DNA of 64,000 nucleotides from an uncultured Lentimicrobiaceae bacterium (GCA_964654725.1 CAZZLL010000006.1:4641-68640); one strand, 5' to 3'. Numbered from the stretch's first letter, positions 22,229-61,417 are shown. Made by a program: numbers and translations. The notes: a model not told the origin generated them from the letters alone.

Positions 22229-22269
22229 AAAAAAGCTGAAAGGTAAAAATCACCTCTCAGCTTTTTTTG
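22229..22269 (-). terminator. Hairpin flanked by A/T runs (terminator or attenuator) between the lipoprotein gene and the TBDT gene
   Basis: AGCTGAAAGG (22234-22243) pairs with CCTCTCAGCT (22253-22262): a 10-bp stem with one G-U pair and a 9-nt loop. It is flanked by A5 on one side and T7 on the other, so either strand ends in a U-run. Confidence 0.45.
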
Positions 22270-22287
22270 TCTATAGATCACACCTTA

Positions 22288-23667: not shown

Positions 23668-23839
23668 ACTGTTGAAATTTGAATTGATAAATATTTGGTT
23701 TCTAATAAAAATAATGCAATTAAATACAATGCAAATCAACAGGTTTTGGAAGAACTGAAAATTAACAGAATGTTATCCTTAGGTTAAAAATAAAGATGAT
23801 ATGTCGGTTGTTCTTAATGTTAAATTAACACAGATATAA

Positions 23840-24269: not shown

Positions 24270-24274
24270 CTTGC

Positions 24275-26671: not shown

Positions 26672-26887
26672 TTTTTGTTTTTTTTTGCAAATTTGAAAAT
26701 AATGACCAATAATCTCAATGGTAAACAGACAGAATAAACGAAATACCTGATGAGATAACCAAATATACTGACGAAAATAATAAGTTATGAATACCGGAAT
26801 TAGAATACATCCAAAAAAAAGAAGGATTCAGCAGCCTTTCTGCGAGCTTCTTGGTATCAGTATGCTTCATGGCATGCATGCCAAGCT

Positions 26888-27718: not shown

Positions 27719-27730
27719 GATCTTTATCAT

Positions 27731-45812: not shown

Positions 45813-48800
45813 ATGAAATACCTGTTTATTAGTTTATTTCTTATGGCTGTAATATTTCTTCTCCCTGAATATTCCAGGGCGCAGCAAATAAAGAAATTTT
45901 CGGAGGATACTGTTAAGTTTATCGAAGAATTAGGTGAATATTTTGACAATGTGAATCAACGGGATAAGAAAGATGCCGAGTTTATGATGGAAAACTTTAC
46001 CCTTGCCTGGCGTCAGAAAAAATTTTCTCCAACACAGCAAGTGATGATTTACCAGGTGTCAAATGCTATGCTGAGTAAGCGAATGCGCGCCATACCTCAT
46101 TTTTATGATTTTCTGAATGCCCTGTTGTCTTTTACAAAGAGTTCGCAGGATGATGCAAGTTTTATGGCCTGGATCAACAGCCTTCATGCCCTGATTGACA
46201 AATCTTCCAGTAAGTATTTCCTGGATTATGTTACTCAGACTATTCACCTCCTGAATAAGAACCATATTTATGAATCCAGGGCTACAATTTGGGCCACAGA
46301 TAATGAGAATTATCGTTTTGAGTTTATTGATAATACTATTCGGATAAGCTTTCCTTCCTTAACGCTGAGTTGCTATGCCAATGATGACAGTGCCGTAATT
46401 TTAAATACCAAAGGAGTTTATGATCCTTTAGCGTACAAATGGCAAGGTGAAGGGGGGCGTGTGTTATGGAACAGGGCAGGCTTTGCTCACGATGAAGTTT
46501 ATGCCGACCTTTCCTCCTATGAAATATTTATGAAATATTCTAAATATACGGCAGATTCGGTTGTGTTTGTGAATACTAAATATTTCAATAAACCCATGCT
46601 GGGTTACCTTGAAGAAAAGGTCCTGGCGGATGTAACACCGGAAAGGGCCAGCTATCCGAATTTCTCATCTTATGATAAGCGGACCCGTATCAGCAATCTT
46701 TTTGAAAACATTGATTATGAAGGGGGATTTGAAATGAAAGGAGCCCGCTTCCTTGGCTCTGGCGGGGAGAATAGGGATGCCTATATATATATTACAAAAG
46801 ATGGCCAGGATTTTATTAAGATCTCAGCAAAAAATTATACCATACGTACTGACAGGTTAGCTTCCAGTTTTGCTGCTGTTTCCATCTTCTTTGAAGGGGA
46901 TTCAATTTTTCACCCCGGACTGCAAATGAAATATATGGATGAGAACAAGGAACTGACCCTTACACGTGAACAGGAGGGCATGTCAGCCAGTCCTTTCTTT
47001 AACTCTTACCATAAAGTGGATATGTATTGTGAACAAATGATCTGGGATCTGAATAAATTTGAGATCAATTTTCAAATGATTCGGGGAGTTGGTACCGAGG
47101 GAAGGGCTGTGTTTGAATCAGAGGATTATTATACGGATTACAAATATTATCGATTGCAGGGTATGGATGAGCAGCATCCCCTACATGTTATCAGGAGTTT
47201 TAGCCAGAGATTTAATACAAAGGAAATTGAAATCGGCAAACTGGTCCGCTATTGGAATACAAACAAAGGCCAGGCCGATCCTATCCTCATAAACCTGTCA
47301 ATCATGGGTTTTATCCTCTATGACTATGATGATGGAATGATATATGTTAAAGATCGCCTGTTTAATTATATCAATGCAAAAAACGGAAAACGGGATTATG
47401 ATGTTATACAGTTTGAATCCGTAATCTCTGCCGAAGCCAATGCCACCCTGAGTCTTATAGATTTTGACCTGTTGCTGCGTGGCGTCGGACGGGTTTACCT
47501 TTCTGATTCACAATTGGTGTATATATATCCAACCAATCAGGAAATTACCTTGAAGAAAAACCGGGATTTCACCTTTGATGGTACTATCCATGCCGGTTTA
47601 TTTGATTTTTTCGGTCATGAATGCTCTTTTGAATATGACAAGTATAAGCTGAACCTTCCGGCTATTGACTCCATGAGTTTTCTGGTGAGGAGCTTCCGAC
47701 CTGATAAATACGGGAAATATTCCTTAAAGCGCGTGAAAACTGTTTTGTCAGACTTAAGTGGAGACATCCTGATTGATCATCCGGATAATAAGTCAGGTTT
47801 GAAACAGCGCCACGAATATCCCATATTTAACAGTAAAAAGGATTGCTATGTATATTATGATAAGAAAACAATACAAAAAGGAGTATATGACCGGGACAGG
47901 TTTTATTTCCATGTTTTCCCGTTTACCATCGACAGCTTGGTTAGGTTCACCACGGAGGGTCTTGAATTTAACGGATACCTGACTTCTGCGGATATTTTTC
48001 CGGATATTGAGGAGCCACTGACTGTGCGTCCTGACTATTCCCTGGGGTTTGTTCATAATACTTCTGTTTCCGGCCTCCCCATGTATAACGGAAAAGGACA
48101 GTTCAAAAAAACTGTTGATCTCAGCCATTATGGATTGCGCGGAGACGGATACCTGGATTATCTTTCATCGAAAGCGACTTCCAACGACTTTTATTTTTTT
48201 CCGGATTCCACCAATGCTATTGCCCAGGAATTTGTGATAGAGGAACAACTGGGGGCTACACAATATCCTGATGTAGATGCCAGGGAGGTGTATATTCATT
48301 GGGAGCCTTATAAAGATAATATGTTGATAAAAAAAATCGACAATCCCATTACGATGTATAAGCATGAGGTTGACCTGAATGGGTGGCTCTCATTAACACC
48401 GGCTTCCTTAACAGGTGATGGCACCCTGGATTTTGAAGATGCAAAAATGAATTCTGATCTCTTTCTTTTCAGGCAGCATGAAATTGATGCAGATACAGCT
48501 GATTTCAGGCTGAAGGCATATGAACTGGAAGATTTTGCTTTCTCAACAAAGAACTATAAGTCTCATATAGACTTTGACGAAAGAAAAGGAGTGTTTAAAT
48601 CGAATGGGGGCGGATCCCTGGTTGAGTTTCCGGTAAATATGTATGTATGCTTTATGGATGAGTTTGAGTGGTTTATGGATGAAGAAGAAATTGCACTGAC
48701 AAGTCGTCCGGATCCCAATGTGCCAAACACAGACAATTTGAACCTAAAAGAATTAGTGGATATTGAACTGGGAGGATCGGAATTTATTTCCGTGCACCCT

Positions 48801-50336
48801 GCACAAGATTCCCTGAGGTTTTTTACCACAAAAGGTAAGTTCAGTTTAAGGGATAATATCATAAAGGCAGAAGACGTGAAACTTATACGTGTTGCAGATG
48901 CTGCTATTTATCCCTTCGAAGGGGATGTGACCATTTACAAAAAGGCAGAGATGGAAACCCTTAAAAAAGCTAAAATTCTGGCAAATACTACAACGAAATT
49001 CCATACCATATATGATGCTGTTATTAATGTTCATGGTCGCTTCAACTATTCCGGTATGGGAAATTATGATTATGTGGATATAAACAGCAATTCCCAGCAG
49101 ATCTATCTTGATAAAATACGTGTAGATACTACTGGTCAAACCTATGGTACCGGAAATATCAAGGAAGAACAATCCTTTACCCTGAATCCGTATTTTGAGT
49201 ATACCGGTGATGTTACCCTTCTTGCAAACAATGAGTTTCTTACGTTCAGTGGCGGAACCCGGATCAGTCATGATTGTGATACCCTGCCCCGTTTCCAGGT
49301 AAAATTCGAGACAGAGATTAATCCGGAGGAAGTATTAATTCCTGTTAATACTCCACTAAAAGATATCAAGGGAAACAAACTGGAAGCAGGCATTATGTTC
49401 TCGCACACACAGAATGATATTTATCCTGCATTTCTTTCGGTTGTAAATAAATACAGTGATACAAAAATGGTTGGTGCCGAAGGATACCTGACTTTTGAAG
49501 ATGTTAGCAGGGAATACAGGATATCCTCAAAGGAAAAATTATTTGAGATGAGTCTGCCCGGAAATTTTCTCAGTTTGAGCCAGAGAAATTGTATGACATA
49601 TGGTGAAGGTAAGCTGGATATGGGAGCAAACCTGGGCCAGGTGAACATGCAATCGTTTGGGAATATTAAACACTGGATGGCTGTTGATTCCACACGTATC
49701 AATATGGTGATGTTAGTTGACTTCTATTTCGAAGAGCAGGCCCTGTCCCTGTTTGCAGAAACCATGGTAGGATATTTATTGCCGGCAGCTGAACTAACAG
49801 ATGATTTGTTCTCTAAAACCCTGGCAGAATTGCTTGGGCAGGAAGATGCTGATGAAGCGCTTTCAGATCTCAATATGTACGGGTTTATCAGGGAAAAGAA
49901 AATTTCCAAACAATTGCAGCATACCCTTTTCTTAACAGATGTAAACCTTTACTGGAGCGATATCACCCAATCCTTCATCTCTGATGGCCCTATTGGTATT
50001 GTTAATATAGGCGAATCAGAAATCAATAAATATGTGGAAGGTAAAATAGAGATCGCGAAAAAACGTAGTGGAGATGTGATTACGGTTTACCTGGAACCTG
50101 ATGAAACAGAATGGTACTTCTTTAGCTATTCCCGTGGTTTAATGCAGGCTTTTTCTTCTAATAAAGAGTTTAATACCTTTATTTTAGACCAGAAACCCGA
50201 AAAAAGAAGGATGGATGTAAAATCAGGGGAACCTCCATACCGCTATAGTTTGTCAACAGAACGAAAGAGAAGGTATTTCCTGAGAAAGTTTGAAAACACT
50301 GAACCTGAGCCGGAAGAAAAAGATGATGACTATTAA
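45813..50336 (+). CDS. Very large (1507 aa) secreted protein of unknown function
   Basis: A single uninterrupted ORF begins 15 nt after prmA. Signal peptide is MKYLFISLFLMAVIFLLPEYSRAQ. I recognise no catalytic or repeat motif. The C-terminal ~70 aa are basic and then acidic (KRRMDVKSGEPPYRYSLSTERKRRYFLRKFENTEPEPEEKDDDY). Confidence 0.7.
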   Translation: MKYLFISLFLMAVIFLLPEYSRAQQIKKFSEDTVKFIEELGEYFDNVNQRDKKDAEFMMENFTLAWRQKKFSPTQQVMIYQVSNAMLSKRMRAIPHFYDFLNALLSFTKSSQDDASFMAWINSLHALIDKSSSKYFLDYVTQTIHLLNKNHIYESRATIWATDNENYRFEFIDNTIRISFPSLTLSCYANDDSAVILNTKGVYDPLAYKWQGEGGRVLWNRAGFAHDEVYADLSSYEIFMKYSKYTADSVVFVNTKYFNKPMLGYLEEKVLADVTPERASYPNFSSYDKRTRISNLFENIDYEGGFEMKGARFLGSGGENRDAYIYITKDGQDFIKISAKNYTIRTDRLASSFAAVSIFFEGDSIFHPGLQMKYMDENKELTLTREQEGMSASPFFNSYHKVDMYCEQMIWDLNKFEINFQMIRGVGTEGRAVFESEDYYTDYKYYRLQGMDEQHPLHVIRSFSQRFNTKEIEIGKLVRYWNTNKGQADPILINLSIMGFILYDYDDGMIYVKDRLFNYINAKNGKRDYDVIQFESVISAEANATLSLIDFDLLLRGVGRVYLSDSQLVYIYPTNQEITLKKNRDFTFDGTIHAGLFDFFGHECSFEYDKYKLNLPAIDSMSFLVRSFRPDKYGKYSLKRVKTVLSDLSGDILIDHPDNKSGLKQRHEYPIFNSKKDCYVYYDKKTIQKGVYDRDRFYFHVFPFTIDSLVRFTTEGLEFNGYLTSADIFPDIEEPLTVRPDYSLGFVHNTSVSGLPMYNGKGQFKKTVDLSHYGLRGDGYLDYLSSKATSNDFYFFPDSTNAIAQEFVIEEQLGATQYPDVDAREVYIHWEPYKDNMLIKKIDNPITMYKHEVDLNGWLSLTPASLTGDGTLDFEDAKMNSDLFLFRQHEIDADTADFRLKAYELEDFAFSTKNYKSHIDFDERKGVFKSNGGGSLVEFPVNMYVCFMDEFEWFMDEEEIALTSRPDPNVPNTDNLNLKELVDIELGGSEFISVHPAQDSLRFFTTKGKFSLRDNIIKAEDVKLIRVADAAIYPFEGDVTIYKKAEMETLKKAKILANTTTKFHTIYDAVINVHGRFNYSGMGNYDYVDINSNSQQIYLDKIRVDTTGQTYGTGNIKEEQSFTLNPYFEYTGDVTLLANNEFLTFSGGTRISHDCDTLPRFQVKFETEINPEEVLIPVNTPLKDIKGNKLEAGIMFSHTQNDIYPAFLSVVNKYSDTKMVGAEGYLTFEDVSREYRISSKEKLFEMSLPGNFLSLSQRNCMTYGEGKLDMGANLGQVNMQSFGNIKHWMAVDSTRINMVMLVDFYFEEQALSLFAETMVGYLLPAAELTDDLFSKTLAELLGQEDADEALSDLNMYGFIREKKISKQLQHTLFLTDVNLYWSDITQSFISDGPIGIVNIGESEINKYVEGKIEIAKKRSGDVITVYLEPDETEWYFFSYSRGLMQAFSSNKEFNTFILDQKPEKRRMDVKSGEPPYRYSLSTERKRRYFLRKFENTEPEPEEKDDDY

Positions 50337-50396
50337 GATTTGTCTGTATCTTCCTTATGACTAAATTTGCAGCATTGGATTATACCCGTCAATTAT

Positions 50397-51023
50397 ATGC
50401 TAATTAAGGTTGTATTTGTTTTAATAGCCTATTTAATAGGATCTCTTTCAAGTTCGGTCATTATCGGAAGAATGGTCTACGGTATTGATATTCGTAGCAA
50501 AGGAAGCGGAAATGCAGGTGCTACAAATACGTTTCGCCTGCTGGGGCCCAGGATCGGAATTATTGTCTTGTTGTTCGATATTCTAAAAGGGTTTGTAGCC
50601 GTAAACCTGGCAGAATTTGTTTCAACAGAGACGATGAATGCTGAGCAAATATTATTTTACCAGCTCATATTGGCCCTGGCGGTTGTATGCGGTCATGTAT
50701 TTCCTGTGTTCACCGGATTTAAAGGAGGTAAAGGAGTAGCAACCCTCCTGGGTGTTTGTATTGCATTGACTCCGCTTTCATTGTTGTTTAGTGTTATGAT
50801 TTTTATCATTGTTTTTTCTTTTACTCAATATGTATCCCTTGGTTCCATGTTAGGTGCATTTTGCCTTCCTCTTGCTTATTTCTTCCTTCATGATGCAAAC
50901 TTACTTCCATTGATCATCTTTACAATTGCTGTAGCTGTTTTTATTCCGCTAACACATCGCAAAAATATTTATCGCCTGGTAAATGGAGAAGAAAAAAAGT
51001 TAAGGCTAAAAAAAGGGGGCTAA
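50397..51023 (+). CDS. plsY: Glycerol-3-phosphate acyltransferase PlsY
   Basis: I moved the start to ATG 50397 (MLIKVVFVLIAYLIGSL). Contains GSGNAGATN and FKGGKGVAT. Confidence 0.88.
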   Translation: MLIKVVFVLIAYLIGSLSSSVIIGRMVYGIDIRSKGSGNAGATNTFRLLGPRIGIIVLLFDILKGFVAVNLAEFVSTETMNAEQILFYQLILALAVVCGHVFPVFTGFKGGKGVATLLGVCIALTPLSLLFSVMIFIIVFSFTQYVSLGSMLGAFCLPLAYFFLHDANLLPLIIFTIAVAVFIPLTHRKNIYRLVNGEEKKLRLKKGG

Positions 51024-51294: not shown

Positions 51295-53988
51295 ATGAGA
51301 CACATATATTTTCAGATGATCACATGTAGCTTTTTAAGTACTATTTTTTTTGCATTGCTGATGCTTACCGGTTTTTCGGTGCAGGCAGATGGCATAAAAG
51401 ATCAGCCTGATGAAAAATCCGAAGAAAATGTTAATGTCGGGAAAAAGGAATTCAAAGAAGCTATAAAGTATTTTTATGCCGGCAAATACGACAAGGCATA
51501 CCCGCTTTTTGATGCCCTGGTTAAAAGCGACAAGGACAATTCAAATCTGAACTTTTATTTGGGTGTGTGTATTCTGAATACGACAAAAAATGTTTCTACT
51601 GCCAAACCTTATTTTGAAATTGCTATTAGAAAAACTACAGTTGATTACTACCCTAAATACAAAGAAGAAAGGGCACCGGCTTTTGCCTATTATTACCTGG
51701 GTATAATATATCACTTTGAATATGAATTTAATAAAGCGATTACGTATCTGAGGAAATTCAGATCGGCAGTGCCCTATGAACAGCGTGAACTTCGGGCAGA
51801 TGTTGACAGGAGAATGAATATGGCAAAAGATGCCAAAAAGCTGGTGAAAAAGCCAGTAGAAAATATTGATATAGCAGCCTTTCCCGGAATAAATAGTGCA
51901 TTTAATGATTTCGGTGCCATGGTCGATGATAATGAAACCCTTATGTTTTTTACGTCCAGAAGATACAGGATGGCAAAAAATGAAGAGGATTTACTCTCTC
52001 ATTCGAAAGACCTGATGTTTACAACCTGGGAGAATGATATCAAAATGCCTAAAGTTAGCAAGGCGAATGATGAATACAAAAGCAGTGTTTTCTTTATGGC
52101 GAAAGAAGGTGGAAACTGGTCTTTTCCGAAATATTTTGAAACAATAAACAATGCTGATGCAAACAATGTATTTGGTTGTCTTTCCTTCGACGGAAAGTAT
52201 CTCTTCTATAGTTCAGATGTAAAGGGGAATCAGGATATTTATTATTGCGAATCGGTTGGCATCAATCAGTGGACAGCTCCTAAAGCCCTGGGATCCAATC
52301 TAAATTCTACTTCCAATGAAACCAATGCCTGCCTGAGTCCTGATGGAAATACACTTTATTTTGTAAGCGACCGCAAAGACGGCTATGGTGGGAAAGATAT
52401 TTACTACAGCAATAAACTGGAAGATGGCACTTGGGGAAAGGCAGTCAATCTGGGAAGAAGGGTAAATACTAAAGAAGATGAGGAAAGCCCGTTTATAACT
52501 GAAGATGGCAATATGCTTTATTTTAGTTCAAAAGGGCATAGCAGCATGGGAGGCTATGATGTGTTTTATACGAAGTCTGTAGGGAATAAGTATTATAATA
52601 AATTTATTTCAAATAACTGGGGAAGACCTGAGAATATTGGTTATCCAATCAATACCGTGTATGATGATTTAAGCTATAAAGTTTTCAATAAGGACAGGAT
52701 TACCCTGTTTACTTCTGCGAATAAGGAAGGTGCCCGTCAAATGGACATTTACATGGTGAGTTATAAAGAACAGGTGGTGGATACGCAAGATGTTACTTAT
52801 GCAAAGGTGACCATTGAAGAGAAGAAAGAAGAGCTTATTCCTGATACAAAAATCGTTCAGGATGAACCGGAAAAGAAAATAATAACCGAGGAGCCAAAAC
52901 AGGAGGAGAAAACCTATGTGGAAGAAAAACCTGTCAAGCCCGGGATTATTGAAAAAGAGCCTGTGAAGAAGGTTATTCAGGATCCTTTTGTTAGCGGATT
53001 GTATACTATTGTTCTGGGTGAGGCAGACTACCCGGAAGGTTATTTTGATGGTGTTCCGGGTATAAAGTATTATCAGAATGAAGAAGGGAAGAAAAGGTAT
53101 TATGTGGGCGAATATACTGAGCTAAAAGATGCTGAGGCATATAAAAGGCAGCTCTGGGCTATCGGGTATACCAGTGCATATGTAACCTCAATTGATGGCG
53201 GGGCTGTGACAGGGAAATTAATTACTACCACTACTGTTGAGCAGAAAAAGAAGGAGCAACCGGTTGAGAAGGATTATACCCAGAAGAAGATCATTGAACC
53301 CGAAGAAAAAGTGGCAGAAATGAAAGAACAGGAACCTGATGTTTTTGCGAAAGAACCTGTAGAGGGGAAAACAAAACCCTACACAAAACAGATTCATTCG
53401 GGAGTAAAGCTATACACGGTTCAGGTGGGGGCTGGGAATATGGATATGGATTATTTTAATGAATTAAGCGGTGTTAAGACTTTCATTGGCAGTGATGGCG
53501 TGAAAAGATATACCGTTGGCGAATACACTTCTGTTATGGATGCCGAGTCCAGACGCAGGGAAATCAAAGCTAAAGGATATAAGGCATGGGTCAGGGAAAT
53601 GGAGAAGGAAATCGTTGTTGTTAAGAAGACTCCTGCACAAAAGGAAACACCGAAAGAAACAGATATGCCTCCCGCAGATACTGATTATCAATTGGTTGAT
53701 AAATATCCATGCCGGGACTATGATAACAATGTTTATTATGAAAAATATACTATCCAGATAGGCGCCGGAAATATGCGGTATGAGTACTTCAATAAGATTG
53801 ATAATGTTGTGATTTGCGAAGGATTGCATGGTTTGAAGCGGTTCGTAGTGGGAGAGTTTGACAATCTTTCTTCCGCACGTCTTTACCGCATGGATTTGGT
53901 TCAGCTTGGCTACCGCGATGCCTGGATACCAAGTTTAAAGGATCACCTGTGTAATTGCTATAAAATGTCTGATGTTTATCAGCACTAA
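51295..53988 (+). CDS. Paralog 2 of the TPR + PD40/TolB-like repeat family, with 3 SPOR-like domains
   Basis: 897 aa with a signal peptide. TPR block includes DKDNSNLNFYLGVCILN. There are 4 PD40-type repeats (LSFDGKYLFYSSDVKGNQDIYY; LSPDGNTLYFVSDRKDGYGGKDIYY; ITEDGNMLYFSSKGHSSMGGYDVFY). PENIGYPINTVYDD is present, then K/E/P-rich linkers. Three modules of about 65 aa follow (LYTVQVGAGNMDMDYFNELSGVKTFIGSDGVKRYTVGEYTSVMDAESRRREIKAKGYKAWV and two relatives). Confidence 0.75.
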   Translation: MRHIYFQMITCSFLSTIFFALLMLTGFSVQADGIKDQPDEKSEENVNVGKKEFKEAIKYFYAGKYDKAYPLFDALVKSDKDNSNLNFYLGVCILNTTKNVSTAKPYFEIAIRKTTVDYYPKYKEERAPAFAYYYLGIIYHFEYEFNKAITYLRKFRSAVPYEQRELRADVDRRMNMAKDAKKLVKKPVENIDIAAFPGINSAFNDFGAMVDDNETLMFFTSRRYRMAKNEEDLLSHSKDLMFTTWENDIKMPKVSKANDEYKSSVFFMAKEGGNWSFPKYFETINNADANNVFGCLSFDGKYLFYSSDVKGNQDIYYCESVGINQWTAPKALGSNLNSTSNETNACLSPDGNTLYFVSDRKDGYGGKDIYYSNKLEDGTWGKAVNLGRRVNTKEDEESPFITEDGNMLYFSSKGHSSMGGYDVFYTKSVGNKYYNKFISNNWGRPENIGYPINTVYDDLSYKVFNKDRITLFTSANKEGARQMDIYMVSYKEQVVDTQDVTYAKVTIEEKKEELIPDTKIVQDEPEKKIITEEPKQEEKTYVEEKPVKPGIIEKEPVKKVIQDPFVSGLYTIVLGEADYPEGYFDGVPGIKYYQNEEGKKRYYVGEYTELKDAEAYKRQLWAIGYTSAYVTSIDGGAVTGKLITTTTVEQKKKEQPVEKDYTQKKIIEPEEKVAEMKEQEPDVFAKEPVEGKTKPYTKQIHSGVKLYTVQVGAGNMDMDYFNELSGVKTFIGSDGVKRYTVGEYTSVMDAESRRREIKAKGYKAWVREMEKEIVVVKKTPAQKETPKETDMPPADTDYQLVDKYPCRDYDNNVYYEKYTIQIGAGNMRYEYFNKIDNVVICEGLHGLKRFVVGEFDNLSSARLYRMDLVQLGYRDAWIPSLKDHLCNCYKMSDVYQH

Positions 53989-54240
53989 GAAATAAATGCG
54001 TTTTTCTGCTTATAGGTTCGCTTTTTGCAGGTGTAAAAACGATACTTTCTTAAAAAAACAAGCGTACAAACATTTCAGCCTGTTAAAATAGGAATGTTAG
54101 TATGTTATTGATTATTAGTTATTAACACTGTGTCCCAATTTCTTTAAGACAAGCTTTTGGAGTCCTGATTTATTCTCAGGACTTATTAAATCTTATCCAT
54201 ATATACTTTTGATCAACGTTAACCTAAAAATCAAGCAATA

Positions 54241-54753
54241 ATGAAAAACTCAGTTCTTTTTAGCGAAGTTCAAAAGCAAACTCAAAAATGGATTTGGTTT
54301 GTTCTGATTATCCTTTTATTAACAACTTTAGTCGGAGCAATCCAACAAGTTATCTTCAACAAAGGCTTTGGGCCTAATCCAATCCCTGATTGGGGTTTCC
54401 TGGTAATAGGAGGCGTATTGCTGGCCTTACTGTATGTGTTGGTTAAAACAAAGCTTTATACTGAAATAAGTCCTGATGGAATTCTTTTCCTTTACAAACC
54501 CTTTTTTAGGAAACCAAGGCTTATTAGCTGGGATCATATTAGAAATTGTTATGTAAGGCTTTATGCTCCAATGAAGGAATACGGTGGCTGGGGTTTACGG
54601 ACAGCATTTACCGGTAATAACGGTAAAGCATATAATGTTACAGGAAATATTGGCATACAGCTAGAATTGACAAGCGGTGAGAAAATCCTTATTGGCACAC
54701 AAAAGGCTAAAGAAGCTGAAGCTGCCCTCGAAACACTGAAAAAGGAGAAGTAA
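54241..54753 (+). CDS. Small membrane protein (2 TM helices plus a soluble domain of about 90 aa), unknown function
   Basis: 170 aa. Two hydrophobic helices are visible (WIWFVLIILLLTTLVGAI; GFLVIGGVLLALLYVLV). The C-terminal domain is YTEISPDGILFLYKPFF....ISWDHI.... The stop is 1 nt before the next ATG. Confidence 0.55.
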   Translation: MKNSVLFSEVQKQTQKWIWFVLIILLLTTLVGAIQQVIFNKGFGPNPIPDWGFLVIGGVLLALLYVLVKTKLYTEISPDGILFLYKPFFRKPRLISWDHIRNCYVRLYAPMKEYGGWGLRTAFTGNNGKAYNVTGNIGIQLELTSGEKILIGTQKAKEAEAALETLKKEK

Positions 54754-54754
54754 G

Positions 54755-55762
54755 ATGGAAATAACAGATGCTATATTATTTGTGCAGGGTTTTGTCTGGG
54801 CAAGTCTGTTGCTCAGACAATCCTCCGCCCGAAGTACCTGGCTTGGATTTGCTTTTTTTACCATCTTTATTATTTACTTCCTGCGTTATTTAAATACAGT
54901 TTTTAATGCGCAAATCCCTATACAGATAATACAAATTGGATCAATCCTTGCCATTCTTCTGCTAAGTTGTTACCTGGTGAAGAATGCAGTTGGTCAATTA
55001 TCCAACATGTTTCTTTTATTATATGCCATAGTCGTGTTCTTGGCTATATTATTTTTAGTATACAGTTTATCACTTTCTGGAAAAAATATATTTTGGAAAT
55101 CTTTCACTTTGTTTGCTGCAGGTGACATCATATTTAATTGGTATATATTTATTTTTCAATGTAAAAGAAAAACTTTTGCCGGAAGTATTATGGGAGATCC
55201 TCAGCTAAGAGTTGATTTTAGCATTCTCCTGAATAAATCTTTCGCTGTTTTATTCGGGGTTGCCATTCTGATAATTACAATCACAAAGATAAATACTACC
55301 TTGATTTATAATGGTTTTCAATCCCTGTTGGGTATTTTGGCTTTCATTTCAGGTTATGTTGCCGTAACATCCAAATTCATTAAAGAATACCCCAAACAAA
55401 TAGCAAAGCAGCAGAAAGAAAATTCTGTACTGGCAAGTGATATTATGAAATTGATGCAGGAAAAAAAGTTATACCTGGATTGTGAGCTTACTTTAGGTAA
55501 AATGGCTGATATCCTTAAAACAAACGAAAATGAAATTAGCCAGGTATTGCATGGTGAAATGGGAACAAGCTTTTACAAACTAATAAATGACTACAGAATT
55601 GAAACTGTCAAGCAGAAATTGAAAGAATTTGATAGCAGAAACTATACCATTATGGCTTCTGCTTATGAGTCAGGATTTAATTCCAAATCAACATTTTACA
55701 GGATTTTTAAGGAATATACCAATATGACACCCAAAGAATACATAGAGATAATAAACGATTAG
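54755..55762 (+). CDS. Membrane-anchored AraC/XylS-family transcriptional regulator
   Basis: 335 aa. The N-terminal ~210 aa contain about 6 hydrophobic helices. The C-terminal ~100 aa form the AraC HTH (LTLGKMADILKTNENEISQVL...SFYKLINDYRIE.VK..L........I...AYESGFNSKSTFYRIFKEYT.MTPKEY). Confidence 0.8.
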   Translation: MEITDAILFVQGFVWASLLLRQSSARSTWLGFAFFTIFIIYFLRYLNTVFNAQIPIQIIQIGSILAILLLSCYLVKNAVGQLSNMFLLLYAIVVFLAILFLVYSLSLSGKNIFWKSFTLFAAGDIIFNWYIFIFQCKRKTFAGSIMGDPQLRVDFSILLNKSFAVLFGVAILIITITKINTTLIYNGFQSLLGILAFISGYVAVTSKFIKEYPKQIAKQQKENSVLASDIMKLMQEKKLYLDCELTLGKMADILKTNENEISQVLHGEMGTSFYKLINDYRIETVKQKLKEFDSRNYTIMASAYESGFNSKSTFYRIFKEYTNMTPKEYIEIIND

Positions 55763-55955
55763 TTGCAATGGAATTGATATTTAAAGGCAAAGTAAGGTGA
55801 TATCCTGATTAACAAGTATGAATAATTCAATTCTCAGGTGTATGGCAAACGCGCGGTCTTGTTTCATTTTCTTATCAATAATTTTTAACAAAATATCAGG
55901 AAGTATAGATTTTCTAAGCATTTCGTCTTAAATTTACATTTTTAGTGTAATAGCT

Positions 55956-58900
55956 TTGACGGGATTAATAAGAAATATAGCCACATTAATTTTCTTATTT
56001 TGCTTCATTCATCCTGTTGTTTTTGCTCAGAATGAATTCAGTTCTGAGGAAGAGCTGCGGGAAAAAGCAGAAGAATATCTTGTTAATGAGAAATTTGCTA
56101 AGGCTATGCCTCTATACGGCCAGTTGCTCAGCCTGTATCCTAAGGATCCTATGTATAACTATCTTTTTGGAATATGTGTGCTGTATGGTGACAGAAGAGA
56201 GCCCGAAAAAAGTTTTAAATACCTTGAATTCGCTCGGGAACACCTGAAGGGGGAAGCTAATATCAACTATTATCTTGGCCAGGCCTACCATTATAACTAT
56301 CAGTTTCGTGAGGCTATTCTTGCCTATACTGATTTCGTAAACACAGCACCGGAGAGGGATGTCAGGCGACTGAATGTTAGGAGAAAGATAGAAATGTGTG
56401 TACATGGACTGGAATTGCTTCAGCGTATCAGTGAGCTGTATGTGTTAGAGAAAGCCAATGTGAAAGAAGAGGATTTTTACCGCTTCTACCATATTGATGA
56501 TTTTGGAGGAAAATTGCTTTCCAAACCCTATACACTGCAATCAGGGCTTGATAAACGCAGGGATGCAAGCAATTTTGTTTTCTTTTCTGACACCAATAAC
56601 CTAATATACTTTTCAAGCTACGGAAGTAAACGAAAGACAGGGAAAGATATTTTTTTTTCCGTAAAGCTTGAAGATGGCAGTTGGAGTGAACCTGAACTGT
56701 TCAGTGATGTCATCAATACAAGCTTGGATGAAGACTATCCCTTTATGATGCCTGATGGCAAAACCTTCTATTTTAGTTCCAAAGGTCATAATTCAATGGG
56801 CGGTTACGATATCTTCGTCTCGCGCTTTGATACTGTTCAAAAGGTTTGGCAACCTCCGGAAAATATGGACTTTGCTATCAATACCCCGCATGATGATTTT
56901 ATGTTTGTTGCGGATACGGCTCTTAATTATGCCTATTTTTCTTCCACACGAAATAGTGTAGGTGGCAATGTAAATGTTTATAAAGTCCGGATTGATCAGC
57001 GACCTCTTGTTAAAACCGGGATATATCTGGCCGATAAAAATACACCGGTTACCCGGGAACAGGATTCCCTCTACAAGGCAAATATTAAGTACCTGTTAGA
57101 AAAATCAGACCTGGAAGTAAATGCAGATAAAGATCAGTTCAGGGAGGAAAAGACAGAGAAGAACATCCCTATAGCAAAAGTAGATTCTGAAAAACGTCTG
57201 GAAGAAATATACAGTGAGAAAAAAAGAGGGGATGTGCTTACAGATACAGCCTTTGCTATTGCCAATCAACTCAAGAGACAGGTAAAATGGGAAGAGGACA
57301 AACTGACCAATGCGAATAAGATTATCAATAGCCGCAAGGCCCAACTGAAAGAAAAGAATGCAGAGGTTAAGGAGGCCTATAAAAATGCAGAAAAACTGCC
57401 TTCGTCAGCTAAAGAAGTTGCTATGCGAAAGGCAAAAGCTTTGGAGGATGAATATAAGGTTATGGAGTCGGAGGTCAAAATAGCAGAAGACCTAAAAATT
57501 CGTATTAACCAACACTATCGGAACCGGAGGGAAACCTATGATATGGTCAATAGTTATGCCGGGCAGATACAGAAAATGTCAAAAACGAATAAGCTGGATA
57601 AAGCGGAGGAACTTTTCGATGAAATGCATGATATTTTGCAACGTGCCGACACCCTCGGTGATTATGCGAAAATAGCTTTTGAAAACCATCAGCAATATAT
57701 CAGTGAAGTGGAAACTGAAGCCATTCGTAATTATAGTAAAGCAACTCAACAGAAACGGGAGGCAGAAGATCTAAGAACAGATGCCCGGGATTTTCGTCAG
57801 GATGCGGCAGGAACCAATGATGAAAATATCAGAAATGATATGCTGGAACAGGCTTCTGTTGCTGAGAATGATGCAAATAAAAAGGAAGCTGAGGCCGATA
57901 GGAAAATGCAATTGGGAAAAAAATACCAGGCTGCTTCAGATAGTGCGATCAAAGCAACCAATATCCTGGATAAGATGATCAGTTATATCGACTATTATGA
58001 CGAAATGCTGGAGATAGATGAAAAAGAGATGGAACTGATGAACGGGAAAGAAAAGGAGGAAACCGGAAAGAAACCCATAGATAAAGAAGTAATTCAGGAA
58101 ATTGAACAAACCCTGAATACACAACTGGATGTGCTGGCAAAAGATTCGGCATATAACAGCAGGCAGTCCGAACGTATGTTGGCATTTGCTGCCAACAAGC
58201 TGGATTTATCAGAAGCTCTCGATATTGAAGCTGAAAAGTTACATGAGTCTGGCACGGAAGCTAATGATAAAAAATCAGCGGAACTTTATGAAGAATCCCT
58301 GAAGTTAAAAAGAGAGGCAGTAGCCGCATATCAAATACATAAAGAGTATCTGAAAAGAACGGAAAAGAAAAGCAAAAGCCTGAGTCTTGCAAAAGGAAAA
58401 GCTTCTGTTATCAATACAAAATTGAGGGAAGGGGATGAAAAAACTGCCAATAATCTAATTGATGAGTTTAATGTGGTGATAGTGAATCAACAAAATGAAT
58501 ATCCGGTTGCGAAAAATCTGACGAACAGGCTGACCCAAAAAAGAGATAGCCTGGCTGAAGAGGAGAAAGCTATCCTGGCCGAAGCCAATGATTTGTTGAA
58601 TGACGCTAAAAGTCTTCGGAAAAAATCCATCACCCAAAAGGAGAAAGCAGAAAATACAAATCGCAAAAAGAAAAAAGAAGATCTGCTGCAGCAATCCGGT
58701 GAACTTGAACAACAGGCTCAGCAAAAGGAGGCTGAGGCTAATGTTCTCTTCGATAAAAACCTGGATAATCAGCAGGTACTTGAAGCCACAAGTACCCTTA
58801 TAGATTTTATTGGCAGTGCCAATGAGCAGTTCAGCAATACTCCATCCAATGTGAGTGCCCTGAGATTTAAGAAAGATTTTAATCTTCAGGATTTCGTAAA

Positions 58901-60944
58901 GACCATCTCAAAGCAACTACAATTAAATATTTTTAGTAATTCTTATGCTGATGAGGATGAAAAAGTTGCTGTTGCGGAAATGCCTGTGAAAGAACTACCC
59001 GTTGATTCAATGACTTCCGGTACGGAGGAAGTTGTATTCGAAAATTCAGTAAAAGAAGAGCAGGTTGATACTCCCATGAAAAGGAAAAATGAGGACGAGC
59101 AAAAGCTGAAAACTGACAACCAATGGAATGAGGATAGCTATCAGCTTATACTGGCAGATGATGCCTATTCCCGAACCAGGATTATCGACAATACGTTAGA
59201 ATTGATACTTGCCCAGGCCAATATGTACCGACAACGCATGCAGAATGCCGGAGAGGACGAGTCGAAAAATCACCAGGAACACATTGACAGCCTGATGATC
59301 GTTAAAAGGCGCCTGGAAATGGAGAAAGAAAATATTGTATCTCTGTCCGGAAATCAAAATAAATCCCTTAAAGCAGGGCAGGAGAAGGATATTGATGAAT
59401 ACGTTGGCAAGTTAGAAGATGATGCAGCCATAGGCTTTAAAAATGTGAATGATATGCGAAAACAGGCTTACATGATGCCTGAAGGAACTGCAAAAGAGGA
59501 ATTGCTGACAGAGGCAGATTCATTGGAAAGTAATGCAATGGCAAAGCAAAAGGCCGCATACAGCATGGGCTCTTTGCAAAATATGAACCGCTTTTATACC
59601 AACGATATTGCCCTTAATATTGAGAAAGAGCGCTATGCAAACCGAAATGAAGATGCTTTTGGTGAAGCAACAACGAAAACCTATACAGCCCGTTGGCATC
59701 TGACACGGGCTTCATCATACTCAGACAGTGCAGCTCAGGCGCAGCATTATGCTGCACTGATAAGATACCTGGAAAATGCAAGACGGGAAGAAAAGAAAGC
59801 ATTGGAATTACAGCAGGAAGCCCTGGAATTTTACCGGAAAGAAAGCGGGATCGTATTGGCAGAAGAACCCAAAGTAACTTCAGAATTAATACAGGAAACA
59901 AAATCCATGACACGGGATCCGGATGTCAGGGAAGATAAGAATATTATTCCCGGATCTTCGCCTGAGGTTTTTTACCGGATACAAATAGCCGCTTCAAGAA
60001 TACCTTTAAACTTTGCTGCATATAACATCAATAAGGATATTGTAACGGAAGATATTTCGGGCTCTGATATGGTGCGGTATATGGTGGGTATGTATGAACA
60101 GCTTACCGAGGCACTGGAAAACCGCAAAGAAATAAGGAGTAAAGGTTTATCAGATGCTTTTGTAGTTGCTTATCACCAGGGTAAACGCATACAGGTTGGT
60201 GAAGCCAGGCGTTTACAAAATACCGGGGCTGTCTCTCAGGTTATAACAGATAAAAGCGCGTTGGGAACTCTTTTGAACACGGATGAAAGCCGGAAAATAC
60301 TACCTGTTGGTAAGGTGGAGGGGTTCTTTTATTCGGTGCAGGTGGGCGTTTTTAGCAGAAAAAGAAGTGCTGCCGACTTGAAATATCTATATCCCCTGTT
60401 TGAAGATATCCTGACAAATGGCAACTACAGGTATTACGCCGGAATATTCCAGAAATCTCATGAAGCCATCAAAGCCAGGAATGAGATCCGAAACCTGGGA
60501 CTGAAAGACGCCTTCGTAGTTCCGGTGCGGAATGGGAAACGTATCAGCCTGGCACAGGCTGGTGAACTTGAAAGGACTAATGCTCCGAAAGCGGATGCAC
60601 AAGGTTTTGAAATTTTTATCATGCCATCTGAAAAAGAAACTTCTAAAGAAGAGATAAATGCTGCGGATATTGTATTCAAAATTCAAATTGGTGCCTATAG
60701 CAAAGAAGTCCCGGTTGAAGTGGTGGACCTGATGATTTCAGTGAGCGAGCTGGGACTGGAAAAATATATGCGGGAAGACGGGCTCACCATATATACCATC
60801 GGAAAATTTTCTGATTATGAAGAGGCCGGAAAATGGAGGCTGAAAATTCACGAAAAAGGAATCCCGGATGCTTTTATCGTTGCCTATGCAAATAATGTAA
60901 AGATAAGTGTAAGTCAGGCACTGGAAATCATTAAAAGAAATTAA
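55956..60944 (+). CDS. Paralog 3 (1662 aa): TPR + PD40/TolB-like repeats + K/E/A/Q-rich, probably coiled-coil region of about 970 aa + 3 SPOR-like domains
   Basis: There is no in-frame ATG before the signal peptide. The track starts at TTG 55956 (LIRNIATLIFLFCFIHPVVFAQ). TPR block is YGQLLSLYPKDPMYNYLFGICVLY. PD40-type repeats include MMPDGKTFYFSSKGHNSMGGYDIFV, and PENMDFAINTPHDD is present. The charged helical region spans about 57060-59960. SPOR-like modules start at about 59967 (FYRIQIAAS...), 60321 (FFYSVQVGVFS...) and 60669 (IVFKIQIGAYS...). Confidence 0.75.
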   Translation: MTGLIRNIATLIFLFCFIHPVVFAQNEFSSEEELREKAEEYLVNEKFAKAMPLYGQLLSLYPKDPMYNYLFGICVLYGDRREPEKSFKYLEFAREHLKGEANINYYLGQAYHYNYQFREAILAYTDFVNTAPERDVRRLNVRRKIEMCVHGLELLQRISELYVLEKANVKEEDFYRFYHIDDFGGKLLSKPYTLQSGLDKRRDASNFVFFSDTNNLIYFSSYGSKRKTGKDIFFSVKLEDGSWSEPELFSDVINTSLDEDYPFMMPDGKTFYFSSKGHNSMGGYDIFVSRFDTVQKVWQPPENMDFAINTPHDDFMFVADTALNYAYFSSTRNSVGGNVNVYKVRIDQRPLVKTGIYLADKNTPVTREQDSLYKANIKYLLEKSDLEVNADKDQFREEKTEKNIPIAKVDSEKRLEEIYSEKKRGDVLTDTAFAIANQLKRQVKWEEDKLTNANKIINSRKAQLKEKNAEVKEAYKNAEKLPSSAKEVAMRKAKALEDEYKVMESEVKIAEDLKIRINQHYRNRRETYDMVNSYAGQIQKMSKTNKLDKAEELFDEMHDILQRADTLGDYAKIAFENHQQYISEVETEAIRNYSKATQQKREAEDLRTDARDFRQDAAGTNDENIRNDMLEQASVAENDANKKEAEADRKMQLGKKYQAASDSAIKATNILDKMISYIDYYDEMLEIDEKEMELMNGKEKEETGKKPIDKEVIQEIEQTLNTQLDVLAKDSAYNSRQSERMLAFAANKLDLSEALDIEAEKLHESGTEANDKKSAELYEESLKLKREAVAAYQIHKEYLKRTEKKSKSLSLAKGKASVINTKLREGDEKTANNLIDEFNVVIVNQQNEYPVAKNLTNRLTQKRDSLAEEEKAILAEANDLLNDAKSLRKKSITQKEKAENTNRKKKKEDLLQQSGELEQQAQQKEAEANVLFDKNLDNQQVLEATSTLIDFIGSANEQFSNTPSNVSALRFKKDFNLQDFVKTISKQLQLNIFSNSYADEDEKVAVAEMPVKELPVDSMTSGTEEVVFENSVKEEQVDTPMKRKNEDEQKLKTDNQWNEDSYQLILADDAYSRTRIIDNTLELILAQANMYRQRMQNAGEDESKNHQEHIDSLMIVKRRLEMEKENIVSLSGNQNKSLKAGQEKDIDEYVGKLEDDAAIGFKNVNDMRKQAYMMPEGTAKEELLTEADSLESNAMAKQKAAYSMGSLQNMNRFYTNDIALNIEKERYANRNEDAFGEATTKTYTARWHLTRASSYSDSAAQAQHYAALIRYLENARREEKKALELQQEALEFYRKESGIVLAEEPKVTSELIQETKSMTRDPDVREDKNIIPGSSPEVFYRIQIAASRIPLNFAAYNINKDIVTEDISGSDMVRYMVGMYEQLTEALENRKEIRSKGLSDAFVVAYHQGKRIQVGEARRLQNTGAVSQVITDKSALGTLLNTDESRKILPVGKVEGFFYSVQVGVFSRKRSAADLKYLYPLFEDILTNGNYRYYAGIFQKSHEAIKARNEIRNLGLKDAFVVPVRNGKRISLAQAGELERTNAPKADAQGFEIFIMPSEKETSKEEINAADIVFKIQIGAYSKEVPVEVVDLMISVSELGLEKYMREDGLTIYTIGKFSDYEEAGKWRLKIHEKGIPDAFIVAYANNVKISVSQALEIIKRN

Positions 60945-61417
60945 TATTTTAATCGCAGGTCGTATTCTCCGCCTCTGATAACCCAGCAGTTCTCATCACA
61001 TATGTGGTATTTTTTCGTCTCAAACCGCTCTCCGTCCAAGGCCAGAATGGCTTTGCTGCCGGACTTGTACGTAGCTGTTACCGAATAGTATTCATTCAGG
61101 GGCATTTCAATCTCATAGCTTTCATAATATGCTGTATCTATCCATTCTATTACATTTTCTTCTATGTTTCCGATATAGAAAACCAGTGGTACCTTGGGGT
61201 TTTCATCATTGATGGTAACATCCACATAAACCAATCCCCACTCCGGTTCTTCCAGCTCGCAGTCGCTGAAATCATAAGTTTCACAATCATCCACCATTGG
61301 TTTATCGCAGCTGATAATTATGGAAAAAACTAATAAAGATGCAATAAGATGAATGTAATTTTTGGGAGGTATGGAAGACGTTGCATTTATTCTATAACCA
61401 GGAAATATTTTTTTCAT
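60941..61417 (-). CDS. Small Cys-containing lipoprotein, unknown function
   Basis: Start taken at MKKIFPG...LIASLLVFSIIISC (lipobox). The start overlaps the 3' end of the ankyrin gene by 26 nt. Its stop shares the TTAA tetranucleotide (60941-60944) with the convergent paralog-3 gene. Confidence 0.45.
   Translation of the reverse strand: MKKIFPGYRINATSSIPPKNYIHLIASLLVFSIIISCDKPMVDDCETYDFSDCELEEPEWGLVYVDVTINDENPKVPLVFYIGNIEENVIEWIDTAYYESYEIEMPLNEYYSVTATYKSGSKAILALDGERFETKKYHICDENCWVIRGGEYDLRLKY

Follow-up and report, generated by a model that had tools for sequence, protein, structure and literature searches.

TPR-PD40-SPOR proteins in a Lentimicrobiaceae genome and their relation to the PorE and CHU_0125 envelope scaffolds

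Described envelope scaffolds and wall anchors

[quoted passage not shown] It binds PorP through the propeller, and the wall-binding domain is essential (PMC12773672). CHU_0125, the 'Pal' of Cytophaga hutchinsonii, is likewise a lipoprotein with a plan of TPR, PD40 and wall anchor, the anchor being OmpA_C, and its deletion impairs outer-membrane integrity (PMC5891637). The closest solved propeller fold to the proteins discussed here is that of TolB, which is periplasmic and links outer-membrane components to envelope processes during constriction. CpoB (YbgF), a small periplasmic protein with a coiled coil and TPR, acts at the division site with Tol-Pal and contains neither a propeller nor SPOR.

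Another wall-binding domain is SPOR, known from FtsN, DamX, DedD, RlpA, B. subtilis CwlC and C. hutchinsonii CHU2221. In known SPOR proteins, usually a single copy of the domain follows a membrane anchor, a lipobox or an enzyme domain. Binding to denuded glycans and localisation to the septum are common to every SPOR domain so far characterised (PMC6895207; bioRxiv 10.1101/2022.07.01.498525), and the glutamine which contacts the glycan has been described (PMC6895207). The SPOR domain of CHU2221, from Bacteroidota, also binds denuded glycans and localises to septa (bioRxiv 10.1101/2022.07.01.498525).

The DNA considered here is a 64,000-nt stretch from an uncultured Lentimicrobiaceae bacterium (GCA_964654725.1 CAZZLL010000006.1:4641-68640), referred to as the window, with the focus on positions 51,295-60,944. 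A preliminary description had placed four open reading frames in this region and a third paralog elsewhere in the window, and all five were found where it put them. A897, B170, C335 and D1662 lie on the same (plus) strand within 9.7 kb, and the paralog, E555, is on the minus strand. The reading which we consider somewhat better than evenly probable as a whole is that A897, D1662 and E555 are three separately evolving, secreted periplasmic scaffolds of the PorE/CHU_0125 superfamily in which SPOR replaces OmpA_C, with a predicted wall-binding function; that tpiA-prmA-X1507-plsY with a TPR-PD40-SPOR gene behind it is the ancestral, conserved context; and that the B170-C335 cassette is incidental. 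A search of the literature found no published description of these TPR-PD40-SPOR proteins, and a paper on the BAM of F. johnsoniae (PMC12611786), checked for a related subunit, contained none of relevance.

A897, E555 and the identity of their SPOR modules

A897 (51295..53988) encodes a secreted protein of 897 aa with TPR, a five-blade propeller and three SPOR modules, as established from the open reading frame, Pfam, NCBIfam, AlphaFold and Foldseek, in which TolB propellers are the best matches. Its TPR-like helical domain (aa 40-185, 51412..51849) is modelled by AlphaFold as helices with pLDDT >90 and is matched weakly by Pfam TPR. This is followed by a TolB/PorE-like beta-propeller (aa 190-490, 51862..52764) with a disordered insert at residues 229-259, recognised by Pfam (PD40, 5e-19), NCBIfam, AlphaFold and Foldseek (best match TolB 6pnv, E 4.7e-9). 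Four PD40 repeats had been counted here beforehand; the AlphaFold model has five blades. When the full A897 model was compared with TolB in Foldseek, approximately 270-365 columns aligned, which we assigned to the propeller. Against the TolB equivalog model (TIGR02800) A897 scores 31.8 bits and does not reach the cut-off of 343. TolB has an N-terminal alpha/beta domain and six blades, whereas the proteins described here have five or three blades, lack the alpha/beta domain and carry TPR and SPOR in addition.

E555 (36189..37856, minus strand) is a short paralog with TPR, a propeller and one SPOR, identified from its open reading frame, Pfam (PD40 1e-19; TPR_2 1e-7), NCBIfam, BLASTP and HMM. 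In BLASTP, A897 matches E555 at 28% over the full length and D1662 at 22-31% in the TPR and propeller region only, the likeness to E555 being much the greater. The heads of all three proteins match two curated NCBIfam families in part. The PorE model (NF052230) gave 106.9 bits (8e-31) for A897, 76.4 bits (1.5e-21) for D1662 and 131.2 bits (4e-38) for E555, and its cut-off of 600 was not reached. The CHU_0125 model (NF053607) gave 146.9, 78.4 and 134.5 bits, respectively, under a cut-off of 620 and over the TPR and PD40 part only; among curated families it scores best with the A897 head (CHU_0125_OmpA, E 8e-43, model positions 22-455 of 639). Together with Pfam and AlphaFold, these partial matches bear out the design proposed in the preliminary description, namely TPR, a TolB-like propeller and a peptidoglycan-binding C-terminus, related to PorE. 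The substitution of SPOR for OmpA_C proposed there also holds by Pfam, module profiles and AlphaFold/Foldseek, and no match to OmpA_C (PF00691) was found in A897, D1662 or E555 at E<=0.1. Relatives of the TPR-propeller heads form a continuum of OmpA_C only, OmpA_C with SPOR, and SPOR only, an instance of peptidoglycan anchors being exchanged naturally within one scaffold superfamily.

A role of the PorE type in T9SS would fit these partial matches (8e-31, 4e-38 and 1.5e-21 for A897, E555 and D1662), as well as the PorP-binding propeller and essential wall-binding domain of PorE (PMC12773672). It is nevertheless very improbable: the scores of 76-131 bits are far under the 600-bit cut-off, OmpA_C, CRD and the lipoprotein signal are all missing, no T9SS family was matched among the Pfam-scanned immediate neighbours of the four genes, and the conserved neighbours are plsY, X1507 and clpS rather than T9SS genes. 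Compared with PorE, these proteins have type I signal peptides and one to three SPOR on disordered linkers, and D1662 differs further in its truncated propeller and a spacer of approximately 970 aa. The signal peptides of A897 and D1662 are type I-like without a conserved lipobox Cys. E555 was considered as a lipoprotein, and this was rejected because the Cys near its signal varies among orthologues. Since none of the three is a lipoprotein, unlike PorE and CHU_0125, any attachment of theirs to the outer membrane must be indirect.

The C-terminal modules are true SPOR domains. They were delimited by an iterated HMM, three in A897, three in D1662 and one in E555. A897 module 1 (aa 567-639, 52993..53211) and module 2 (aa 705-773, 53407..53613) were placed by HMM, alignment and model, and module 3 (aa 816-886, 53740..53952) by Foldseek and an AlphaFold model of aa 815-887 with a pLDDT of 93.2. 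The Pfam SPOR (PF05036) cut-off of 21 bits is passed by A897 (24.2) and D1662 (41.1). The single E555 module (aa 479-549, 36210-36422, minus strand) scores 13.6 bits, under the cut-off in Pfam alone, and still joins the same iterated HMM as the A897 and D1662 modules. When modules were isolated, 42 out of 60 matched Pfam SPOR. In searches of PDB sequences, phmmer with the C-terminal regions of A897 and D1662 found no match and the module profile alone succeeded, retrieving the SPOR of CwlC (1x60, E 2e-7), FtsN (1uta, 0.026) and DamX (2lfv, 0.33). The model of A897 module 3 has the RNP-like beta-alpha-beta-beta-alpha-beta fold of SPOR, and its top PDB match in Foldseek was again CwlC SPOR 1x60 (TM 0.69, probability 1.0), with DedD SPOR 11th. 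The beta1 Gln (xVQxGA) is kept in at least 90% of the modules, and all 33 giants of alignment A1 share the corresponding residues of D1662 (Gln 1343, 1462 and 1577). By profile, predicted fold and this Gln, the domain is the same as in FtsN, DamX, DedD, RlpA, CwlC and CHU2221. The three SPOR-like domains previously described in A897 are thus supported by HMM and AlphaFold, and the question of whether the C-terminal modules fold as SPOR/RNP-like domains is answered positively. The arrangement differs from that of known SPOR proteins in that the SPOR domains, one to three in tandem, come after a soluble head of TPR and propeller, with no FtsN-type transmembrane or essential domain.

From domain homology, the TPR-PD40-SPOR proteins would be exported to the periplasm by a type I signal peptide. 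There the SPOR domains are predicted to bind glycan strands that cell-wall amidases have freed of peptides ('denuded'), which would enrich the proteins at septa and new poles, and tandem SPOR on flexible linkers may add avidity. The TPR and propeller head may bind a protein located in the outer membrane or beneath it, as in PorE-PorP and TolB-Pal. Head and SPOR together would then couple an outer-membrane component to the septal wall during division. A different function, to which we assign a rather low probability, is that of general tethers, similar to Pal, which link the outer membrane to peptidoglycan and serve envelope integrity as CHU_0125 does, SPOR being an alternative anchor without septal specificity. 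At the family level the heads are indeed matched best by CHU_0125_OmpA, an 'outer membrane integrity protein' whose deletion harms the outer membrane (PMC5891637), and some relatives bear both OmpA_C and a SPOR-like module, which suggests that both anchors can work in one protein; against this stand the denuded-glycan binding and septal localisation of every characterised SPOR domain (PMC6895207; bioRxiv 10.1101/2022.07.01.498525), the conservation of the glycan-contacting Gln in the modules and the absence of a lipid anchor to the outer membrane.

Some points fit less well with the preferred reading of these proteins as septal-wall scaffolds. One is the lack of a lipoprotein signal noted above. 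A897 module 1 has Val in place of the key Gln, and the E555 module remains under the Pfam cut-off.

The giant family and its conserved neighbours

D1662 (55956..60944, with a TTG start) is, at 1,662 aa, a member of a widespread family of giant proteins, as judged from its open reading frame, Pfam (SPOR 2.4e-10, 41.1 bits; PD40 3e-7) and NCBIfam. Its head consists of TPR (aa 30-165) and about three PD40 blades (aa 175-350; head 56043..57005), placed by alignment A1, NCBIfam and BLASTP. A charged alpha-helical spacer (aa 360-1330, 57033..59945) was recognised by its composition, periodicity and unconserved columns in A1, and three SPOR (aa 1336-1423, 1455-1541 and 1570-1661; 59961..60938) follow by Pfam and HMM. 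D1662 had been described as sharing the plan of A897. The order of TPR, PD40 and three SPOR is indeed the same, but there are only about three blades and the helical insert of approximately 970 aa is absent from A897. In NCBIfam, the D1662 head aligns with the C-terminal half of the propeller (CHU_0125 positions 258-445, PorE 287-420), whereas A897 covers PorE positions 171-425; the BLASTP alignment pairs it with A897 aa 316-545. The possibility that A897 is a giant which has lost its spacer was rejected, because in head and modules A897 resembles E555 and the OmpA-type relatives more than it does D1662.

The plan of the giants is a conserved head of approximately 345 aa, a variable helical spacer of approximately 1,000 aa and three SPOR, with total lengths of 1,500-2,500 aa, and D1662 fits it. 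In alignment A1, D1662 is aligned over its whole length with 32 relatives, and in 43 of the best 80 GTDB loci the match extends from the N-terminus through the final SPOR. All of the 120 best relatives (1,494-2,494 aa) have a spacer of the D1662 kind and 107 of them have three SPOR modules. Hundreds of protein clusters belong to the TPR-PD40-SPOR family, which occurs in 43 or more GTDB species representatives. The spacer is unconserved in sequence and conserved in character across A1. In D1662 it contains 36% D/E/K/R and 3% P+G, with a hydrophobic periodicity of 3.55-3.57 residues. Its heptad a/d contrast is 0.334, as against 0.252 +/- 0.016 in shuffled sequences, and is strong only in aa 430-700.

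The truncated propeller and long spacer of D1662 point less to a short perpendicular tether than to an extended, oligomeric scaffold. The earlier idea of tethers of graded length is therefore doubtful for D1662, since its spacer, if extended, would far exceed the width of the periplasm: at approximately 0.15 nm per residue (own estimate), it would reach approximately 140 nm. A further possibility, which we regard as doubtful, is that proteins of the D1662 family assemble into an extended filament or lattice in the periplasm, as a coiled-coil 'cytoskeleton' running along the wall with X1507, and make no point-to-point tether. The length, charge, low P+G content and heptad-like periodicity of the spacer are consistent with such a structure, as are its presence in all 120 best relatives and the tight synteny of X1507; moreover, three blades alone would need oligomerisation to close a propeller. 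Yet with a heptad signal strong only in aa 430-700, the remainder may fold back into bundles, and only about half of the loci show the synteny with X1507.

X1507 (45813..50336, plus strand) encodes a secreted protein of 1,507 aa and is by synteny a conserved upstream neighbour of both giant and A897-type genes. It is followed by plsY (glycerol-3-phosphate acyltransferase; 50367..51023, plus strand; Pfam 4e-53), which by synteny lies just upstream of the TPR-PD40-SPOR gene slot. X1507 and/or plsY are directly upstream of the giant gene in 36 out of 70 other loci, with a median plsY-to-giant spacer of 55 bp, and in about half of the sampled species the giant gene comes directly after tpiA-prmA, an X1507-type secreted protein of 1,500 aa and plsY. 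A897-type genes are likewise placed after X1507/plsY, and the locus of the closest A897 orthologue reads X1507-plsY-A897-TonB receptor, with neither the cassette nor a giant gene. In the window X1507-plsY is also upstream, but A897, B170 and C335 are interposed before D1662. The conserved neighbours of TPR-PD40-SPOR genes are thus plsY, tpiA, prmA, clpS and X1507. Because plsY, tpiA, prmA and clpS are housekeeping genes, this synteny may reflect inertia rather than function. X1507 itself has relatives in 1,040 clusters at E<=1e-30 and gave no Pfam, NCBIfam or PDB match, including in searches with a 20-sequence profile and member by member.

Late cell division and outer-membrane constriction in Bacteroidota are poorly understood, and we know of no FtsN orthologue in this phylum. 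A large family which fuses a PorE/TolB-like protein-binding head to SPOR predicted to target the septal wall supplies candidates for Bacteroidota division, and X1507, a neighbour as widespread and without a recognised fold, is another. The practical value lies in a testable gene set, the mechanism being only proposed. Speculatively, D1662-type giants and X1507 might constitute an undescribed Bacteroidota envelope or division apparatus with a Tol-Pal/FtsN-type role. An oligomer would complete the propeller from three-blade halves and grip an outer-membrane partner while the SPORs clamp amidase-processed septal glycans, and a signalling gene might have been recruited between paralogs in some lineages, including this one.

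The DUF6141-AraC cassette between A897 and D1662

B170 (54241..54753) is the first gene of a two-gene cassette and encodes a two-TM protein of the DUF6141 family, as assigned from its open reading frame, Pfam, hydropathy and orthologue loci. Its DUF6141 (PF19638) score of 24.5 bits is under the cut-off of 27 and covers model positions 7-157 of 164, and orthologues of B170 score above the cut-off at 31.4 and 32.9 bits. C335 (54755..55762; open reading frame, Pfam, hydropathy) encodes a polytopic membrane protein with a C-terminal AraC/HTH_18 (PF12833) at aa 250-330 (57.6 bits against a cut-off of 33.6, E 1.5e-15), a C-terminal double HTH. Its earlier description as a six-TM AraC-type protein is right as to the AraC-type membrane protein, with a TM count of six or seven by hydropathy and reading of the sequence. 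Translational coupling to B170 had also been proposed; the B170 stop and C335 start lie 1 nt apart, but they do not overlap.

The two genes travel together, with a B170 orthologue directly upstream of the AraC gene in all nine orthologous loci, in sugar-utilisation, IS-element or T9SS-cargo contexts. Apart from the window, seven of the nine cassette loci have unrelated neighbours and one is on a short contig with no similar gene. The remaining one, a Crocinitomicaceae contig (L089) fetched via an orthologue of the regulator, has the cassette 2.4 kb downstream of a giant-family gene. Among 80 other giant-gene loci none has the cassette beside the giant gene. A metagenome scan for relatives of C335 returned only three full or partial orthologues, on contigs of 3-4 kb.

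The preliminary description had seen in the four genes a regulated set with an embedded dedicated regulator. On that account they form one envelope module, in which the membrane AraC protein and its DUF6141 partner sense an envelope signal and control the flanking genes. We consider this quite unlikely. The shared strand within 9.7 kb and a TAnnTTTG motif of the Bacteroidota -7 type, 30 bp ahead of B170, are compatible with it, as is the Crocinitomicaceae locus. So are L111 and the P0008 contig, from one other lineage, where plsY is followed by two TPR-PD40 genes with a hybrid histidine kinase between them; the pattern of paralogs around a signalling gene therefore recurs, but the L111 kinase shares no homology with C335 and lacks a DNA-binding domain. 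The cassette's absence from the 80 giant loci, its unrelated neighbours in seven of the nine loci outside the window, and the closest A897 orthologue locus, which lacks both cassette and giant gene, all argue against a module. A periplasmic domain of appreciable size is missing from both B170 and C335, and gaps of 252 bp between A897 and B170 (53989-54240) and of 193 bp between C335 and D1662 (55763-55955) permit separate transcription units. What the four genes share is local proximity; they do not make up a conserved system. Under the preferred reading, the DUF6141 and membrane-AraC pair would be an independent, portable regulatory cassette which came to lie between A897 and D1662 by chance.

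The window and L089, from two distant lineages, both have the cassette within 3 kb of a giant gene, which by a rough estimate is above chance; the preferred reading treats it as a coincidence. Scans of the window for sigma-70 promoters (38 found, 33 expected) and intrinsic terminators (9 found, 8.5 expected) were at background, and TAnnTTTG was not enriched in the window (79 against 74). A repeat search of the window revealed only PD40 and SPOR paralogy at the coding level and one inverted pair near the cassette, which at 31 nt and 74% is probably due to chance.

SPOR-bearing relatives of PorE and CHU_0125

The analysis mainly brought out a set of uncharacterised proteins that are related to PorE and CHU_0125 and carry SPOR domains; among them is a widespread family of giant proteins with a conserved X1507-plsY context. 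All five genes of the preliminary description (a four-gene stretch and a third paralog) were found in the ORF list. A897 (897 aa, 51295-53988), B170 (170 aa, 54241-54753), C335 (335 aa, 54755-55762) and D1662 (1,662 aa, 55956-60944) lie on the plus strand and E555 (555 aa, 36189-37856) on the minus strand. D1662 begins at a TTG codon, and its N-terminus is consistent with those of its homologues in an alignment of the giants (A1). The G+C content of the window is 39.6%, and the named relatives all come from uncultured Bacteroidota.

A897, D1662 and E555 contain PD40 repeats (Pfam), and their C-terminal modules, previously called SPOR-like, proved to be true SPOR domains. A897 (24.2 bits) and D1662 (41.1 bits) exceed the Pfam SPOR cut-off of 21 bits, whereas E555 falls below it; searched in isolation, 42 of 60 modules matched. 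Two HMMs, one seeded with the A897 and E555 modules and the other with those of D1662, converged on one common set of 385 domains from 139 proteins, which shows that the two module types are homologous; they also align directly by BLASTP. Compared with solved SPOR domains, a 60-module profile matched CwlC (1x60, E = 2e-7), FtsN (1uta, 0.026) and DamX (2lfv, 0.33). An AlphaFold2 model of A897 module 3 (pLDDT 93.2) has the beta-alpha-beta-beta-alpha(-beta) order. Its top Foldseek match was the SPOR domain of CwlC (TM 0.69, probability 1.0), and that of DedD was also listed. In SPOR-glycan complexes the beta1 glutamine touches the lactyl group of MurNAc (PMC6895207). At least 90% of modules keep it, and in 33 giants none of the three modules departs from it; A897 module 1 is the exception, with Val at this position. 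These results speak against modules without a SPOR fold, an outcome that the preliminary description had named as refuting it.

The full-length AlphaFold model of A897 consists of a signal helix, a TPR-like domain (aa 40-185) and a five-blade propeller (aa 190-490), both with pLDDT >90, followed by three SPOR domains. These are set apart by disordered linkers of ~25-73 residues, with E, K and P abundant in the two longer ones. The best solved structural matches of this head are TolB propellers. The N-terminal halves align to the NCBIfam models CHU_0125_OmpA and T9SS_PorE over the TPR and PD40 regions only, with scores far under the cut-offs. PorE is a lipoprotein with TPR, a five-blade propeller, CRD and OmpA_C (PMC5053529); its wall binding by OmpA_C is essential and its propeller binds PorP (PMC12773672). 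CHU_0125, required for outer-membrane integrity, has a TPR-PD40-OmpA_C plan (PMC5891637). In contrast to PorE, the window proteins lack OmpA_C and CRD (Pfam), and their signal peptides are type I without a conserved lipobox. With CHU_0125 they share the TPR-PD40 plan but not OmpA_C. They are relatives of both proteins that stand outside both families. The domain-level reading of the preliminary description, with TPR and a TolB-like propeller joined to SPOR in place of OmpA_C, is correct. No description of TPR-PD40-SPOR proteins was found in open-access papers or bioRxiv.

Among the A897 matches, the nearest relatives all have SPOR-like modules. Some more distant ones carry both OmpA_C and a SPOR-like module, which implies that members of this superfamily have swapped or gained wall anchors more than once. 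The A897 relatives P0011, P0012, P0015, P0024, P0077, P0096 and P0117 have OmpA_C (precomputed Pfam) together with one SPOR-like module, so that a single TPR-PD40 protein holds two different peptidoglycan anchors.

From these features a mechanism can be proposed in which the proteins would be exported to the periplasm. Their SPOR domains would bind denuded glycans, leading to septal or polar enrichment, with tandem domains adding avidity. The TPR-propeller head may bind an outer-membrane-associated partner, by analogy with PorE-PorP and TolB-Pal.

The giant family and its genomic context

A897 and E555 share 28% identity over their full length, whereas A897 and D1662 align (22-31%) only in the TPR and propeller region (BLASTP). 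D1662 and A897 are proteins of different kinds. The beta region of D1662 (aa 175-350) aligns to the last three blades of A897 and of the PorE and CHU_0125 models, and thus represents an incomplete propeller. The ~970 residues that follow are 36% charged and contain 3% P+G (11 prolines); hydrophobic periodicity (3.55-3.57 residues) and heptad contrast are well over those of shuffles, most strongly at aa 430-700. An extended scaffold made of oligomers is suggested by the partial propeller together with the long helical region. A picture of perpendicular tethers, graded in length as proposed earlier, fits D1662 poorly, since a 970-residue helix would measure ~140 nm if fully extended.

Of 1,695 relatives from a protein search, the best 120 are all 1,494-2,494 aa long with SPOR modules, and 107 of these have three. 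The head and three SPOR domains are conserved in alignment A1, the spacer sequence is not. In a search of GTDB species representatives, the match ran from head to last SPOR in 43 of the 80 best loci; these 43 belong to Bacteroidales, Flavobacteriales (Crocinitomicaceae, Cryomorphaceae, Fluviicola), Sphingobacteriaceae and others. Existing labels for these proteins are 'hypothetical', 'PD40 domain-containing' and, once, 'FtsN'.

An X1507 homologue and/or plsY lies directly upstream on the same strand in 36 of the 70 giant loci with enough upstream sequence (median plsY-giant spacer 55 bp), often preceded by tpiA and prmA. X1507 (45813-50336, plus strand) is a secreted protein of 1,507 aa that matched nothing in Pfam, NCBIfam or PDB, also when searched as a profile. 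It is very widespread, with relatives (1,040 clusters at E<=1e-30) that are nearly all ~1,500 aa and colinear, and it keeps tight synteny with plsY and the slot of the TPR-PD40-SPOR gene. At the locus of the closest A897 orthologue (52% identity) the order is X1507-plsY-A897-TonB receptor; in the window, A897 and the B170-C335 pair are inserted between plsY and the giant gene. On the 3' side of the giant gene, clpS was found in 33/80 loci and an M48-like peptidase in 20/80. The former, directly after the giant, encodes a 95-aa ClpS adaptor and the latter is a metallopeptidase lipoprotein; ClpS had no match in the window. Two genes (60941-62804, minus strand) converge with D1662. One encodes a 173-aa protein without a family match, its stop codon overlapping that of D1662 by 4 nt. 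The product of the other (470 aa) has at least six ankyrin repeats, and its C-terminal ~170 aa match no family.

The B170-C335 cassette

B170 has two TM segments (hydropathy) and C335 six or seven (read by eye from profile and sequence), with no large extramembrane loop in either by hydropathy. C335 contains an HTH_18/AraC domain (Pfam); the DUF6141 match of B170 is slightly below the cut-off, which its orthologues exceed. No description of DUF6141 was found in open-access papers or bioRxiv. The B170 stop and C335 start are 1 nt apart, and the same spacing was found in 9/9 loci examined, where a B170 orthologue directly precedes one of the about 40 full-length C335 orthologues. Around the pair in these loci lie genes for xylose and fucose, IS elements or genes for T9SS cargo. 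This constant pairing amid unrelated neighbours indicates an autonomous two-gene unit. At the locus of the closest C335 orthologue (L087:4193-6208), IS110-family and Y1 transposase genes lie ~1.3 kb from the cassette, which fits a mobile cassette or a variable region.

The four genes had been presented as a candidate system, a reading that the evidence mostly does not support. By tblastn with the window genes, B170 was found in 0/80 giant loci, and one of the 80 has an HTH domain like that of C335, ~2 kb away. Moreover, the cassette is absent from the locus of the closest A897 orthologue, as is a giant gene. That a cassette or signalling gene and the TPR-PD40-SPOR genes nevertheless form one module is improbable, although some loci speak for it. 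In a Crocinitomicaceae contig (L089, 1-8990), a giant-family gene is followed by clpS, an acetolactate decarboxylase-like gene, a 232-aa ORF and then the cassette, at a distance of 2.4 kb. Proximity to a giant gene in two of five independent cassette lineages is above chance by a rough estimate from a small sample. In L111 (2830-10739) and the contig of P0008, plsY is followed by a TPR-PD40 gene (479 aa, without a wall anchor), a hybrid histidine kinase and a TPR-PD40-2xSPOR gene. The kinase has TPR sensor repeats, HisKA, HATPase and two receiver domains but no HTH. Here again two paralogs enclose a signalling gene, one not homologous to that of the window.

Regulatory elements and other window features

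TAnnTTTG is the Bacteroidota -7 promoter consensus. It occurs at 54204-54211 (plus strand), 30 bp upstream of B170, and at 55951-55958 (plus strand), overlapping the TTG start codon of D1662; over the entire window it is not enriched. Scans of the region for promoters, terminators, repeats and Rfam families were uninformative.

Elsewhere, a cluster at 19365-30079 (minus strand) contains three large genes for CarboxypepD_reg-domain, outer-membrane receptor-like proteins of 962, 798 and 782 aa, with a Plug domain detected in two and a TonB barrel in one. A TonB-dependent receptor gene (1008-3383) has a TPP riboswitch close to its upstream side (827-954, plus strand; Rfam RF00059, 57 bits), which suggests thiamine-regulated uptake.
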